Shown piece by piece: positions 3,697-46,333 of a stretch of DNA of 64,000 nucleotides. Position numbers and translations under genes: made by a program. The DNA is from Lama guanicoe. Lineage: Eukaryota. The notes under the pieces were generated by a model. That model saw only the letters and a program-made list of their open reading frames with translations. It was not told the DNA's origin and searched no databases. The DNA lies in contig MU054466.1 in the NCBI GenBank assembly GCA_013239625.1, positions 310,001 to 374,000 on the forward strand, read 5' to 3'. Position 1 is the first letter of the stretch. Every line of letters starts with the position of its first letter.

Positions 3697-7041
<3,345 letters not shown>

Positions 7042-10617: not shown

Positions 10618-11169
10618 NNNNNNNNNNNNNNNNNNNNNNNNNNNNNNNNNNNNNNNNNNNNNNNNNNNNNNNNNNNNNNNNNNNNNNNNNNNNNNNNNNN
10701 NNNNNNNNNNNNNNNNNNNNNNNNNNNNNNNNNNNNNNNNNNNNNNNNNNNNNNNNNNNNNNNNNNNNNNNNNNNNNNNNNNNNNNNNNNNNNNNNNNNN
10801 NNNNNNNNNNNNNNNNNNNNNNNNNNNNNNNNNNNNNNNNNNNNNNNNNNNNNNNNNNNNNNNNNNNNNNNNNNNNNNNNNNNNNNNNNNNNNNNNNNNN
10901 NNNNNNNNNNNNNNNNNNNNNNNNNNNNNNNNNNNNNNNNNNNNNNNNNNNNNNNNNNNNNNNNNNNNNNNNNNNNNNNNNNNNNNNNNNNNNNNNNNNN
11001 NNNNNNNNNNNNNNNNNNNNNNNNNNNNNNNNNNNNNNNNNNNNNNNNNNNNNNNNNNNNNNNNNNNNNNNNNNNNNNNNNNNNNNNNNNNNNNNNNNNN
11101 NNNNNNNNNNNNNNNNNNNNNNNNNNNNNNNNNNNNNNNNNNNNNNNNNNNNNNNNNNNNNNNNNNNNN
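10618..11169. other. N gap (552 nt) in the MAFG CpG island
   Basis: Run of n. Confidence 0.99.
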
Positions 11170-15251: not shown

Positions 15252-15837
15252 ATGACGACCCCCAATAAAGGAAACAAGGCCTTGAAGGTGAGCAGACAGG
15301 GTGGGCACTGTCTTGGGGCTGGGGCGGCATCTGGGCGGGTGGCCCCTACTTGGCCCGTGACCTCGTGCCCTGTGCTCTCCGCAGGTGAAGCGGNNNNNNN
15401 NNNNNNNNNNNNNNNNNNNNNNNNNNNNNNNNNNNNNNNNNNNNNNNNNNNNNNNNNNNNNNNNNNNNNNNNNNNNNNNNNNNNNNNNNNNNNNNNNNNN
15501 NNNNNNNNNNNNNNNNNNNNNNNNNNNNNNNNNNNNNNNNNNNNNNNNNNNNNNNNNNNNNNNNNNNNNNNNNNNNNNNNNGCTGGAAAAGCAGAAGGCG
15601 GAGCTGCAGCAGGAGGTGGAGAAGCTGGCCTCGGAAAACGCCAGCATGAAGCTGGAGCTCGACGCCCTGCGCTCCAAGTACGAGGCCCTGCAGAACTTCG
15701 CCAGGACCGTGGCCCGAAGCCCCGTGGCGCCAGCTCGAGGCCCCCTGGCTGCCGGCTTGGGGCCCCTCGTCCCCGGCAAGGTGGCCGCCACCAGCGTCAT
15801 CACGATAGTCAAGTCCAAGACGGACGCCCGGTCGTAG
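15252..15837 (+). CDS. MAFG: Small MAF bZIP transcription factor G (162 aa)
   Basis: join(15252-15287,15385-15837). [12 protein letters not shown]|VKR[gap][47 protein letters not shown]...KSKTDARS*. 489 nt including the gap. Exon 2 acceptor AG at 15223-15224. Confidence 0.96.
15394..15581. other. N gap (188 nt) inside the MAFG CDS (extended homology and basic region)
   Basis: Run of n. Reading frame is preserved across it. Confidence 0.99.
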
Positions 15838-16854: not shown

Positions 16855-17033
16855 NNNNNNNNNNNNNNNNNNNNNNNNNNNNNNNNNNNNNNNNNNNNNN
16901 NNNNNNNNNNNNNNNNNNNNNNNNNNNNNNNNNNNNNNNNNNNNNNNNNNNNNNNNNNNNNNNNNNNNNNNNNNNNNNNNNNNNNNNNNNNNNNNNNNNN
17001 NNNNNNNNNNNNNNNNNNNNNNNNNNNNNNNNN
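16855..17033. other. N gap (179 nt) in the MAFG 3'UTR
   Basis: Run of n. Confidence 0.99.
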
Positions 17034-20190: not shown

Positions 20191-23100
20191 ATGGCCGCCG
20201 GGGGTCTGAGCCGGTCGGAGCGTAAGGCTGCGGAGCGGGTCCGGAGGTTGCGGGAGGAGCAGCAGCGGGAGCGCCTCCGCCAGGTACGCCGCCGCCGCCC
20301 GCCCCGCGCCGCGTCCCCGGCCCGCGCCGCCCTCACCGCCCGCCCCGCGCCCGCAGGTGTCGCGCATCCTGAGGAAGGCGGTGGCCGAGCGCAGCGCCGA
20401 GGAGGGCCGGCTCCTGGCTGAGAGCGAGGACCTGGTGACCGAGCTGCAGGGCCGGAGCAGGCGGCGCGAGGGCCTGAAGCGGCGGCAAGAGGAGGCGAGT
20501 CCGGGCGCGGGCGGGCAGGGGCGCGGCGGCGCGGGGCGGGGGCGGCTGACGGCCGGCCTCGGCGTCTCGGCAGGTGTGCGACGACCCAGAGGAGCTGCGT
20601 AGGAAAGTCCGGGAGCTGGCCGGCGCCGTCCGCAACGCCAAGTACCTGGTCGTCTACACGGGTGCGGGGATCAGCACGGTAGGGAGGCGAGGCGGGGATC
20701 GCCGCACCCCAGGTCGGATCCCAGGTCCCGGGGAATCCGGGACTGCCGGGACGCGGGCTGGCGGGGGCGCCCCCTCCTGGCTGTCTAGGACCGAGCACGG
20801 TACTCTGTTGAGCAACACTAAAATGCGCAAAGAACTCACCTTAAAAGTACCTCGGAGGTTCTTTCTTTTCATACAGAAACTCGGTGTGACTCAATTTAGG
20901 ACTTCACTGAGTAAATAAACGTTCTTAAGCGCTCTAACTCTGTAATACCCACTTAGAGGCCCAGGGAAAGGAAGAGGGATGAAAACGGAAGGCAATAGTT
21001 TAGTGCTTACAGTCTCCTCCTGATTTAAAGTTAAGGACACAACGTTGTAAACCGACTATAACTCAATTTAAAAAAAAATAAATAAAGTTAAGGAGGTTAA
21101 TTCAGTGTCTCAAGGCTGTGTGGGCAGAGCTAAGCCCCAAACTCTGATTCTCCATTCATTGAGTGTTCTGAATATTGAGGAAAGGGAAGTAGAAAACAAG
21201 GCAGTATGAACTGGAGGGCACCAGGTAAGGAGCAGGCATGATTTCGGTTGGAGAAGCTTTATGGAGAAGCTACCTGGGCCGTGGACGATGACATGGCTTT
21301 GATGGCCTGGATAGCACGTTGTTTGCCTGATGGCTGGGTGTGAGTTGAGTGTGACCTACGTGCAGGCCCAGCAGAGGCAGAGAGTGAGGATTTCCGTCCC
21401 AAGAGAAGCCTGTAGGCGACGGTAAGAAGCCATGTAAGCAAACAGCTGTACTGGGAAGTTGGCAGTGGTAGGTCATTAGAATAGAAACACAAATACACTC
21501 TGTGGTCTCACAGAGCTGGGAAACCCATCTGGCTGGTGTTTTTGTGGGATGTAGCACTGAATCTGGGCCTTGAAGGACGAGTAAGGTTTTACAGGCACTT
21601 ACGAAGTAAGACACTCGAAATAGGGATGACTGAAGAGGCCCAGTAGCAAGAACGTGTAAGGTATGTTTATTGCTTTAACTTACAGGCACATGTGCATTCC
21701 CATCATGAAATTGTATAAAAGCAGTAATAATGCCTTTCAAAGAACTGTAAGTGGTTATTAAAACCACATGCTGCTCGTTACTTTGCTCTGAGTGTTACTG
21801 TTTGAGGTTCCCCTTTTCGATGTGAGTCAGAACCACTGTTCAGGGTGGGCATTTTTCTGAGTTTAAGCAGCAGGTGAGAGCTCCCCAGAAGGGAGGTTGT
21901 GCACAACTTCGGGAACACAAGACAACTTGATCCTGGCACCTTTTTGTTTTCTTCTCTCGGGGTGGCTTGGTTTCCCTGGATTGGGTACTTGGGAAATTCA
22001 GTAATGTTTACTCATCTGAAAAGGATGGCCTATCTTTACGAGGACAGGAGCCACTCACAGCATCAGGATGTAAAAACTTGGAGGGAGGAGTGCCTGTGGG
22101 CTCACTGTTTGCTAGCCCCTGAGCGCCGGCTGGGCCCTGGGGACACACAGATGAGCCCGACAAGTCCTCCCCCTCAGTGTAGAGGACAGATGTGGCCACA
22201 GAGCCCAGGTTGAACTCCATTCTAGAAAGGCTCCCACGGCGGGCGGGGTCCGGGCAGAGAGAAGGAGCCCCAGGGGTACACTCCATGTGGGTTGAATTGA
22301 GGCCGGTCTGTGGGCCAGGCTTGAACGTGCTGGGAGAAAGTCTTGGGAATTCTGCCAGTACCTACTGTGATGCCTTTTCACTGCGCTTCTCTCTCTGATC
22401 ACGCAGGCAGCCTCCATCCCAGATTACCGGGGCCCTAATGGCGTATGGACACTGCTTCAGAAAGGAAGAAGTGTTAGGTAAGCAGCCTGGCCCAGCCTCC
22501 CCATCTAGCTGAGCAGGAGCGGCACAGACCTGACCTCCGGCTCCCCTCACCTTGGCTTCCTTTCCACCCGGCAGTGCTGGCGACCTCAGTGAGGCTGAGC
22601 CAACTCTCACCCACATGAGCATCGCCCGCCTACATGAGCAGAAGCTGGTAAGAGCGCAGGGTGGCTAGCTGCTGTCAGTTCCCTTTCTGTATCGTCTTGG
22701 GTACCAGAATCTGAGGATGCTCCAGGCTCTTGTCTGAGATGGCATAGTGTTTGCATATAACCTGCTCACATTCTTTAAATCATTTCTAGGTCACTCTTGA
22801 TACCTAATGAACACAGTGTAAATGCTGCATAAACCGCTGTCCGTACAACGTAAAGGCTGTGCAGATGGCTGCCAGCGTGTGGCAAATCAGTTTTGCTTTT
22901 TGGAACTCTCTGGATTTTCCCCCCAGAATATTTTTGATTCTTTGTTGGTTGAATCCAAGGGTGTGGAACCTCCAGATACCAAGGTCCAGTTGTACTCAGT
23001 GGGTCCATGGTGCCGACTCATGGCGCCCCCTTGGTGCCCAGGTGACCCCTGCATCCTACCTCTGTCGGCCAGTGGAGCCTGTGATGAATACCCAGAGTAG

Positions 23101-25772
23101 TTTAGACTCCTGGTTTGAGCCTCCTCCTCATCCTCCCATGCTTCCTCTCCAAGAGAAGTGGCAGCCTCTCTGCAGCATCATCACGGATAGGGCCCCCCCA
23201 CCCTATCCACATTGTTCCCACAGACCTCAGGAGCCCCCTAGGTACAGGGGAGGCAAGGAGGAAACCTCTGGAGACCCTCTGCTAAGCACCTCCTGTGGGG
23301 AAGGGGTCGATCCTCCTGGGCCTTTAAGGACCTGAAACATAAACCCCTTCCCAGCCGAGGGGTGGCCATGCAGACACTTGCCCTCCCAGGGCTCCAGGTG
23401 TCTGAGTTGTTGGCACCTCCTGAGTCCTGCTGGGCCAGCCTTCTGCTCTGGGTTTGCCTTCAATGGTTTGCACAGGGTTGGAGTTGCCCCAGGTGTGGGG
23501 GTGGTGGGTCTGGCTGAGCCCAGTGTGGCTTCCCTCCACAGTGCTGCTTTCCCCCCAACTCCTGCTGACTTCCTCCCGCCCCACTTCCCTTCCAGGTGCA
23601 GCACGTGGTGTCACAGAACTGCGACGGGCTCCACCTGCGGAGCGGGCTGCCGCGCTCGGCAATGTCGGAGCTCCACGGGAACATGTACATTGAAGTGAGC
23701 GGTCCCGCGGGGGCTCAGGGACCCGGGCAGGCCAGCGGCTCCCGCTCACCCGCCCTCCTCTCCTCAGGTCTGCACGGCCTGCACACCCAACAGGGAGTAC
23801 GTGCGGGTGTTTGATGTGACGGAGCGCACCGCCTTGCACCGCCACCAGACAGGCCGAACCTGCCACAAGTGCGGGGCCCAGCTCCGTGACACCATCGTGC
23901 ACTTTGGGGAGAGGGGGACGCTGGGGCAGCCTCTGAACTGGGAGGCAGCCACCCAGGCTGCCAGCAAAGCAGACACAATCCTGTGTTTAGGCTCCAGCTT
24001 AAAGGTACATGTGGGATGGGGTGAGCCTGCCCACAGCTGGCCAGCTCAGCCTTAGACACCAGCTTCCTATAGCCTTGTTCCCTGGTGTCTGTGTGGTCTG
24101 TCTGTCTATCCATTCCCCAGGTTCTAAAGAAGTATCCCCACCTCTGGTGCATGACCAAGCCCCCCAGCCGGCGGCCCAAGCTCTACATCGTGAACTTGCA
24201 GGTAACTCGGGTGCTCAGAGCTGCCTCCTTAGACCTGGGCCTTAGAACAGGAGAGCCTGACGTTCCTGGGACGTTTATGTCCCACACTCAGGCGCCACGG
24301 AGGTCTGCTGAGCAGAGGCTGTGAGGTTCTGTCCTCACTCGCCTTCTGTCCCCAGTGGACCCCGAAGGATGACTGGGCTGCCCTGAAGCTGCACGGAAAG
24401 TGTGATGACGTCATGCGGCTCCTCATGGACGAGCTCGGTCTGGACATCCCCCACTACAGCAGGTGAGGGCGTGGGCGCACCCCTCCCGCCCCAGGCGCTT
24501 GGGCCATGTCTGTCATCCTTTGTGAGCTGAGCGTCGAGAAAGCTCTGGGTTGTCGCAGATGGCGTCTGAGGCGTGACTGCAGCATGGTGGCCTCAGCAGG
24601 GACTGGCCCAGTATTGGCCTAGGTGCCCTAGTTGGTGTGTCTCCCTGTTGGGAGAGGGAATCTGCCAGCGTGTGCCGGGATGTCCCCCTTCACCCCAGAC
24701 AGCTGGGGTGGGAAGGTGCCTTGAAGAGACGTGCTCTCGGCAACTCAGTTCAAGCAGGACTTGGTGCTCTTGGTGTGGGAGCTGGTGTACTTTGGGGAAG
24801 CTTAAACTGTGCCTTAATGCAGAATGTGTGATAATTTAGACGTGGTGTGTGTATTGAGTAAAAAGTTTACACTTTCTTTCTCTGTGAATTTTCAGGGTCT
24901 TATAGGGGAAATCAATAACTTCTTTTAATCAAAGGGTTCAAGAATTAAGGATCCCTTCACCTTCTGGGCCTGGCAATTCTTGTATGTTATGTTTGTGGTG
25001 TTCTGTAATGTGGGCCTATTGTGTACTGTACCTTTTTCTTTTTCATTTTACATTAACTTAGCTCATTTTTTTTTTTGATCAGTGCTTACCTGTATCTTAA
25101 GTTTATAATATGTGGTTCTACATCTCAGTCAGACACATGACCTCTTCATGGCGTAGTGCCGAGGCCGCACCTCCCTAGTCAGCTTCCCTCCCATCAAGTC
25201 TTGCAGTCTGGGAACGGGGAGAGGGTCTGGTCCACTTGCCCCTGGCCGTACAAGTGAAAGGTGGGGCCCAGAGCTGGCTAGTGACTCCTCCCTCCTGGGG
25301 CTACTGCCACCCCACCCTGTGTGGACACAGCCCCTTCAGTCACCAGCGAGGACACCGAGTTCTGCAGAGGCTGAGCTAGTCTGGGTGCTGGCCTTTGAGT
25401 CACTCAGGGAGCTTACCCCTCGTGGATGATCCGGAAGTGCCACTGAGCAAAGCCTGGCCATGGTTAAGATGTGGGAGGGAAGCAGGGTGACCTCAGTCAG
25501 CTTTCCCGTCCTGGGGCGGGTGTGGTTGTGAGGGGCTCCCAGGCACACCTGACCCAGCCTTCCATTTCTGTAGGTGGCAGGACCCCATCTTCTCCCTGGC
25601 AACTCCCCTGCGTGCAGGTGAGGAAGGCAGCCACAGTCGCAAGTTGCTGTGCAGAAGCCGAGAGGAGCCTGGAGCCTGTGACCGGGGCACCCCTCCGAGC
25701 TCCGCCCCTGTCCTGGGCGGCTGGTTTGGCAGGGGCTGCACCAAGCGCACAAAAAGGAAGAAAGCAACGTAA
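20191..25772 (+). CDS. SIRT7: NAD-dependent protein deacylase sirtuin-7 (400 aa, 10 exons)
   Basis: join(20191-20283,20357-20494,20574-20678,22407-22477,22575-22647,23596-23694,23768-24004,24121-24201,24356-24462,25574-25772) = 1203 nt. Motifs [28 protein letters not shown], CxxC...CxxC and GSSL. Intron 2 is GC-AG. Confidence 0.97.
22676..22994. mobile_element. MER2-like (Tigger/TcMar) non-autonomous DNA transposon in SIRT7 intron 5
   Basis: Contains MER2-type strings GATGGCATAGTGTTTGCATATAACC and GTTGGTTGAATCC...GGAACC, with CAGT...CAGTTG+TA ends. Family assigned from recall. Confidence 0.7.
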
Positions 25773-26227
25773 TCTGGTGCTTGACCGGGAACAATGATGG
25801 CACTTTGCAAATGGCCGGAACTTACTCAGGGGCACGTGGCACGGTGAAGGCTAGGACTGCACCTGAGATTTCTCGGGGTGACATTTTCACCCTGACACGT
25901 GTAGCCAGCCGTCTGTCCTTGTGGGAAGCCCCCTTGCACTGCTGCGGTTGCCCCCGCATGGGCCTGAGGGTGGAGGACACCTCACCCGTGCAGCCTCTTC
26001 ATGAAGAGGTGGCAGCCATGCTCTCAGTGAGAACAGAACTCGGGTTATTTCACACCTGGTTGGCCAAGGGGAAGCGCACGCTGCCTTACCTCGTTCACCA
26101 GGCTAGTCTCAGGGGCCTCAACCCTATTTCTACTACTTCTTAACTTTATAGAAGCCTTTTTCCGTATTGAATATGCTGCAAAGGAGTGGTTTTGAGCCTT
26201 GGCTCTCAAGCAGACGTTTTTATTATT

Positions 26228-26233
26228 ATTAAA
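26228..26233 (+). terminator. SIRT7: SIRT7 poly(A) signal (ATTAAA variant)
   Basis: ATTAAA in a U-rich context ~460 nt after the stop and just before the next CpG island. Confidence 0.7.
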
Positions 26234-26299
26234 CATCTCTGCACTGTCTTCCCTGCGTCACCGAGTGACTGCCTTGCGGAAGCCCAGCGAGATTCCTGG

Positions 26300-26650
26300 A
26301 GGGGCCGGCGCTCGACACGTGGTCCTGTCCCGCCCCTTCCCCAGGTGGGAGCGGAGCAATGGTGCGCGCCCGCCATTGGCCGCGCGCCGAGGGGCGGGGT
26401 CTCCAGGGGTAGGGCGGTGCGCTCCATTGGTTGGGGGCGGGGAGGCGGGGCCCGGCCCCAGAGGGGCTTGCCATTGGTCTCGAGGTTGGGGGTGAGGGGG
26501 CGTGGTTCCGCGCGCAGGGCGGGGCGGCGCTCGCCATTGGCCGCGCGCGGCGGGTGAGGCCCGCGTGACGGCGCTTGCGTGCGCGGGCGGGCGGCGGTGG
26601 CGGCGGCGGGGAGCCGGGCTCCTGTCGGGCAGCGCCGCCGCTACGGGGCC
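26300..26650 (+). promoter_or_regulatory. PCYT2: PCYT2 CpG-island promoter with four inverted CCAAT boxes
   Basis: CCATTGG with ATTGG at 26375, 26426, 26473 and 26536, interleaved with GC boxes. CACGTG near 26316. Confidence 0.8.
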
Positions 26651-32750
<6,100 letters not shown>

Positions 32751-46087: not shown

Positions 46088-46333
46088 NNNNNNNNNNNNN
46101 NNNNNNNNNNNNNNNNNNNNNNNNNNNNNNNNNNNNNNNNNNNNNNNNNNNNNNNNNNNNNNNNNNNNNNNNNNNNNNNNNNNNNNNNNNNNNNNNNNNN
46201 NNNNNNNNNNNNNNNNNNNNNNNNNNNNNNNNNNNNNNNNNNNNNNNNNNNNNNNNNNNNNNNNNNNNNNNNNNNNNNNNNNNNNNNNNNNNNNNNNNNN
46301 NNNNNNNNNNNNNNNNNNNNNNNNNNNNNNNNN
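46088..46333. other. N gap (246 nt) over the ALYREF 3'UTR, probably hiding its poly(A) signal
   Basis: Run of n starting 70 nt after the stop. No AATAAA is visible nearby. Confidence 0.95.

Follow-up and report, generated by a model that had tools for sequence, protein, structure and literature searches.

The window analysed here is a stretch of 64,000 nucleotides in which MAFG-like exons, the SIRT7 gene on the + strand and PCYT2-like exons follow one another, as located via tblastn with fused named models; MAFG ends upstream of SIRT7 and PCYT2 starts shortly downstream of it. SIRT7, a deacylase of the nucleolus, has links to ageing, cancer and the control of chromatin, and its gene model in the window comprises 10 exons (20191-25772) encoding a product of 400 residues. 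The camelid source is evident from exon 7, which has 100% identity to the alpaca and dromedary entries, together with the last 70 residues, which equal those of the alpaca models. Five runs of N (assembly gaps) are present in the window at 5883-6054, 10618-11169, 15394-15581, 16855-17033 and 46088-46333, none of them inside SIRT7.

Several parts of the gene have features of their own. Intron 2 (20495-20573) is a GC-AG intron whose GC donor, GAG/GCGAGT, is required for the 400-residue frame. Intron 3 (20679-22406; 1728 nt) is the probable counterpart of the human intron with an annotated SIRT7 poison exon. No equivalent of that human exon was located in the window; a separate AT-rich stretch lies within the intron at 20801-21200. 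Intron 6 (23695-23767) is 73 nt long in the window, which is not a multiple of three, and is read through in frame (24-25 residues) in many mammalian SIRT7 models, as is intron 7 (24005-24120; 42-49 residues). Exon 9 is fused to PCYT2 exons (24462 to 28486) in camel, bat, marmot, tree shrew and bird models, and these fusions may be read-through transcripts or a recurrent prediction artefact.

Intron 9 lies between the constitutive exon 9 (24356-24462, + strand), which matches named SIRT7 proteins and ends in phase 2 at the donor CAG/GTGAGG, and the last exon, whose coding part (25574-25772) provides residues 336-400 and the normal stop. The preliminary description had placed an AT/U-rich island in this GC-rich gene, and the composition bears it out, with 34.5% GC at 24790-25125, compared with 53% across intron 9 and 58% across the window; the island is one of 11 stretches in the window with a 300-nt GC content below 0.40, of which 5 overlap runs of N. 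Within it lies a cassette exon of 86 nt (24896-24981), and all of its coordinates were reproduced from the gene model. Joined to exon 9 it reads AG/G GTC TTA TAG, which puts an in-frame premature stop at 24903-24905, 76 nt upstream of the cassette/exon 10 junction and thus beyond the distance of the 50-55-nt rule. The predicted product of 337 residues was likewise confirmed: the alpaca RefSeq isoform X3 (P0003) is identical to it letter for letter over all 337 residues, counted from an internal Met.

With its 86 nt and a TAG at codon 3 the window copy does not qualify as a protein-coding exon; the exon of lemur and pika is probably 87 nt long. Relative to lemur, pika and vole, one base is missing from the window at 24942-24946, a shift site deduced from the frame change that is needed to align the read-through peptides. 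Read-through of the camelid stop into exon 10 was considered and rejected, as the frame shifts at this site and read-through would therefore not restore exon 10.

The acceptor of the cassette had been called strong, and it ranks first among the 78 AGs of intron 9. Its U-rich polypyrimidine tract and 3' splice site (24871-24895), used by 7 orthologous models, have 16 pyrimidines in 20 positions, 13 of them T, while the acceptor of exon 10 is lower (14, with 6 T). The motif TTTAC at 24866-24870, a candidate branch point by its consensus, lies inside a 29-nt AG-free zone with its A (24869) 26 nt before the end of the acceptor AG. The 5' splice site (CTT/GTATGT; 24982-24987) is of moderate strength: it has 6 of 11 matches to the U1 consensus and none at -2/-1, and it is tied with 7 other GTs of intron 9, the constitutive SIRT7 donors scoring 5-8. 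From 24982 to 25076 the sequence and a motif scan show tracts rich in UG and in U where splicing regulators may bind, proteins of the TIA1, CELF, TDP-43, hnRNP C or PTBP types being candidates.

Other splice-site-like signals are also present in the intron. A second acceptor-like site (TTAAC, a T11 tract and CAG; 25053-25082), a possible decoy, lies 101 nt past the cassette donor and ranks second among the 78 AGs, and its acceptor at 25083 is used by none of the 19 alternative tails in the orthologous models. The TAG at 24903-24905 was also considered as a downstream acceptor and was rejected, with a matching tail in 0 of the same 19. A second candidate cassette of 104 nt with the donor AAG/GTGGGG (25157-25260) is less conserved; 24 of 37 residues are identical to ground-squirrel model P0069, the sole model using it, and in the window an in-frame TAG at 25176-25178, some 80 nt upstream of the donor of this cassette, takes the place of a Gln codon in the squirrel. 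The acceptor of right-whale model P0008 corresponds to window position 24600. On the + strand GCTTACCTG at 25084-25092 is a consensus donor for the - strand, and it could pair in cis with the donor of exon 9.

By sequence alone the pattern of the cassette is near chance, and the orthologues decide the case; of 2000 dinucleotide shuffles of the island, 246 contained an exon of equal grade whose stop is of the NMD type. A second copy of the island elsewhere in the window was not found by the self-similarity scan, nor a meaningful tandem repeat by the tandem-repeat scan. A stable RNA fold was rejected, as 24840-25130 folds more weakly than its shuffles (z = +2.21, with an equal or better fold in 199 of 200 shuffles). 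Structured non-coding RNA (snoRNA, miRNA) was rejected on the Rfam scan of 24400-25700, which gave 5 matches far below the gathering score (best E 0.11), and long-range inverted repeats around the cassette on 17 short pairs, none convincingly bracketing the exon. Intronic polyadenylation was rejected too: AATAAA and ATTAAA are absent from intron 9 and a single AGTAAA, at 24857, precedes the exon.

The orthologue set consisted of 96 named SIRT7 models, kept from the best 120 of 374 protein matches. These are predicted protein isoforms, so the exon was read through their translations; predicted gene models generally rest on aligned RNA junctions. After exon 9, 68 of the 96 continue normally into exon 10, among them alpaca P0005 and P0006, so that a productive skipped form is present; 16 continue in a non-standard way and 12 have no anchor. 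The cassette is used in 7 of the 16 non-standard models (alpaca, gorilla, Onychomys, elephant, lemur, pika and vole); as the matches stand for clusters, the number of species is a lower bound. The other 9 comprise four fusions to PCYT2, a fragment and four events seen once each.

Acceptor use is visible in all 7 orthologous models and donor use in 3. The X3 isoforms of alpaca, gorilla and Onychomys (grasshopper mouse) end Val-Leu-stop and that of elephant ends Val-Phe-stop, its assignment to the cassette being probable and by resemblance. These four stop-ending models reveal the acceptor only, since the sequence past a stop is invisible in a protein, and those of gorilla and Onychomys also retain intron 7 or intron 6. 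The X1 models of Lemur catta and pika are full-length proteins that carry the cassette as a 29-residue in-frame insert followed by exon 10, and vole X2 reads through the cassette, shifts frame and joins exon 10 at the predicted point. Both splice sites are confirmed by these three read-through models, whose peptides join exon 10 exactly where the donor at 24981 predicts.

Among the placental models the exon is strongly conserved. Allowing frame shifts, the window exon agrees with lemur at 25/28 residues, with pika at 24/28 and with vole at 26/28, a match of 86-93% against 28-67% for all 15 controls under the same alignment treatment; the controls were picked from 47 read-through segments as those at introns 6 and 7. 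Without frame shifts the match drops to 13-14 of 26 for pika and lemur. The vole reads its coding exon 10 in a shifted frame, which feels synonymous changes, and matches there at 15/25 only; at the nucleotide level the cassette thus appears to be better kept than the coding exon next to it. Neutral evolution simulated at an assumed distance of 0.3 substitutions per site gave a mean of 14.6/27 and 24 or more in 0.015% of 20,000 runs; the values observed in this comparison were 24 and 23 of 27.

The indels differ in place, the window lacking one base at 24942-24946 and the vole one elsewhere, and the camelid copy matches lemur at 12/12 residues after the shift in spite of its stop and frameshift. 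As substitutions are rare while the reading frame is unprotected, with indels at different sites, the comparison of sequences points to selection on the RNA of the cassette rather than on its protein. The preliminary description had proposed vertebrate conservation of the island as a check. The exon is strongly conserved among the placental models, and none of another 48 named models, of which 40 are non-placental, shows it (best 120 of 444, with a query that favoured exon-10 forms), which argues weakly for absence of the cassette outside placentals.

The stop itself varies. Of the 7 species, 4 have a stop at this cassette codon (the camelid, gorilla, Onychomys and, probably, elephant, spanning three superorders) and 3 have Glu (lemur, pika and vole), a sample biased toward Glu among peptide-bearing models, as only species without the stop can show the cassette peptide. 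On the species tree, both states occur intermingled within the primates and within the cricetid rodents, so repeated change at one site is needed under either history. Three independent stop losses all leading to Glu have a probability of 0.0004 under a simple substitution model, and any one residue arising thrice 0.05; Glu may be ancestral in Euarchontoglires. The products of lemur, pika and vole would not be NMD targets, that of vole ending in the last exon.

In this species the testable marks of a poison exon are present in the cassette: it is conserved, its splice sites are used in orthologous predicted models, a skipped form exists and its stop is of the NMD type. We consider it, with a probability of about 0.6, to be a conserved alternative cassette whose inclusion in camelids likely leads to NMD and so likely to a lower SIRT7 dosage. 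The strong U-rich acceptor would capture U2AF inside the GC-rich intron, and with a donor of moderate strength inclusion would depend on proteins that recognise the U/UG tracts alongside. UPF1-dependent decay would then be set off by an exon junction complex remaining where the cassette joins exon 10. Inclusion would add 29 residues in lemur and pika and give a shifted C-terminus in vole.

The splicing-controlled off-switch for SIRT7 that had been proposed stands in part, as a real conserved cassette in the models of 7 placental species; it does not stand as a universal poison exon, which the Glu at the stop position in the lemur, pika and vole models makes impossible. The off-switch by NMD is likely, judged by the 50-nt rule only. 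The same earlier account had a product escaping decay lose the C-terminal basic tail. Such a product would be without residues 336-400, and the loss is larger than a tail: in the accessible description of the SIRT7 cryo-EM model the segment 331-362 is ordered and in contact with the catalytic domain, and the tail proper, which is disordered and bears a localisation signal, spans 363-400 (PMC11790868). The cryo-EM structure 9GMK was matched to SIRT7.

The main rival of the poison reading is that the cassette works as a decoy, its splice sites stalling the spliceosome so that intron 9 stays unspliced and the RNA nuclear, with inclusion and NMD as a side product. This we regard as rather unlikely, but it would explain why constraint on the RNA persists even where the stop is lost, and it would give a role to the strong acceptor-like site at 25083, for which no use was observed. 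Two of the stop-ending models also keep another intron, as would be expected of nuclear RNA whose splicing is incomplete, Sirt7 intron retention has been validated by RT-PCR in mouse liver, with the intron unnamed in the accessible text (bioRxiv 10.1101/2020.02.10.941435), and decoy exons are described, in the part of the source available, in PMC6097662. Against this, the lemur, pika and vole models have full inclusion with both junctions spliced, and the retention that is common in other SIRT7 models concerns introns 6 and 7, not 9. A lower place goes to a coding exon, present or past, of 87 nt adding 29 residues after Arg335, in which the stop and the camelid frameshift are later losses. The full-length lemur X1 and pika X1 models with the insert speak for it, as do the improbability of three stop losses all to Glu and the absence of stops from the remaining 27 codons together with a length divisible by three, a combination that chance would give about 6% of the time. 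It is made improbable by the stop in species of three superorders, by the vole, which has Glu yet a shifted frame, by the 12/12 agreement of a camelid copy with both stop and frameshift, by an insert that would land inside the ordered segment 331-362, and by a search with the insert sequence, which returned only lemur, pika and vole (3/3 candidates).

It is also conceivable, but very improbable, that the island is conserved for another function, as an enhancer for the PCYT2 or MAFG promoter or an element of an antisense RNA, and that the exon is low-level splicing noise. The neighbouring start of PCYT2 and end of MAFG and the consensus-like minus-strand donor near 25092 would fit such a function, and noise would fit both the 12% of shuffles that give a pseudo-exon of this kind and the other intron-9 acceptors, each of which appears in single models only. 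Noise would hardly lead 7 species to the same acceptor and 3 to the same donor, when the other intron-9 events occur once each. Finally, the role of the exon may have switched at one codon, being poison in camelids, apes, elephants and some rodents and coding in lemurs and pikas; we offer this tentatively and think it unlikely as a whole.

A conserved unproductive exon, if true, would be an undescribed way to set the dose of SIRT7 and a ready antisense target to raise or lower it. The surprise is moderate, since poison exons are a familiar class and automated annotation already includes the isoform; the surprising part of the case is the stop-versus-Glu switch among mammals. A role switch, if true, would give lemur and pika a form of SIRT7 in which 29 residues rich in aromatics are inserted beside the catalytic domain. 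The difference between stop and Glu is a natural test of whether selection on poison exons keeps the signal for decay or the sequence of the RNA.

The cassette is already visible in automated annotation, as RefSeq predicted isoforms, and is undescribed in the literature searched. One curated human SIRT7 isoform is reported in the accessible part of PMC7824890. SIRT7 is absent from the portions available of the AS-NMD and poison-exon supplements of PMC7726792, PMC8091538, PMC11632617, PMC7347940, PMC11188260 and PMC13247117, and is not mentioned in the main text of PMC13187750 as far as that text was accessible. The intron-9 exon is absent from the available part of the PMC10123112 supplement, where the SIRT7 rows concern a different exon. 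No description of the intron-9 exon was found among the listed papers on SIRT7 splicing, and its human counterpart may already be catalogued, for example in GENCODE or VastDB.

The SIRT7 cassette resembles the AS-NMD class in its nucleotide conservation above the neighbouring introns and in a host gene that is a nuclear regulator. It differs from that class in a stop that is not invariant (Glu in 3 of 7 species), in a frame kept in two species and in an exon conservation seen in placentals only, and no autoregulatory RNA-binding loop is known for SIRT7. AS-NMD is reported to tune chromatin modifiers, and the poison exons of TRA2B, U2AF2, PTPRA and PHIP are, as given in the accessible part of the same source, likewise short intronic cassettes with a stop more than 50 nt before the junction (PMC8091538); BRD2 exon 3b belongs to the same class of conserved poison cassettes in the available part of PMC10789245. 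The human SIRT7 poison exon at hg19 chr17:79873934-79874015 lies in the same gene, has 82 nt and carries a stop within the exon, but its intron of 1.9 kb is by size intron 3, not intron 9; it is listed in rows of tables ST2 and ST7 and marked not significant in ST7, in the part of the supplement available (PMC10123112). The cryptic conserved poison exons of PMC11632617, in the portion accessible, are likewise conserved intronic elements with a rarely seen exon of about 90 nt and a flanking intron that is also conserved and prone to retention, but that set excluded exons annotated by GENCODE or RefSeq, whereas the SIRT7 exon appears in RefSeq predicted isoforms of several mammals. The decoy exons in SF3B1 intron 4, as described in the accessible part of PMC6097662, share with it a conserved cryptic exon and a host intron of about 1 kb with several signals that resemble splice sites, from which the SIRT7 cassette is set apart by its full inclusion in the annotation of three species.
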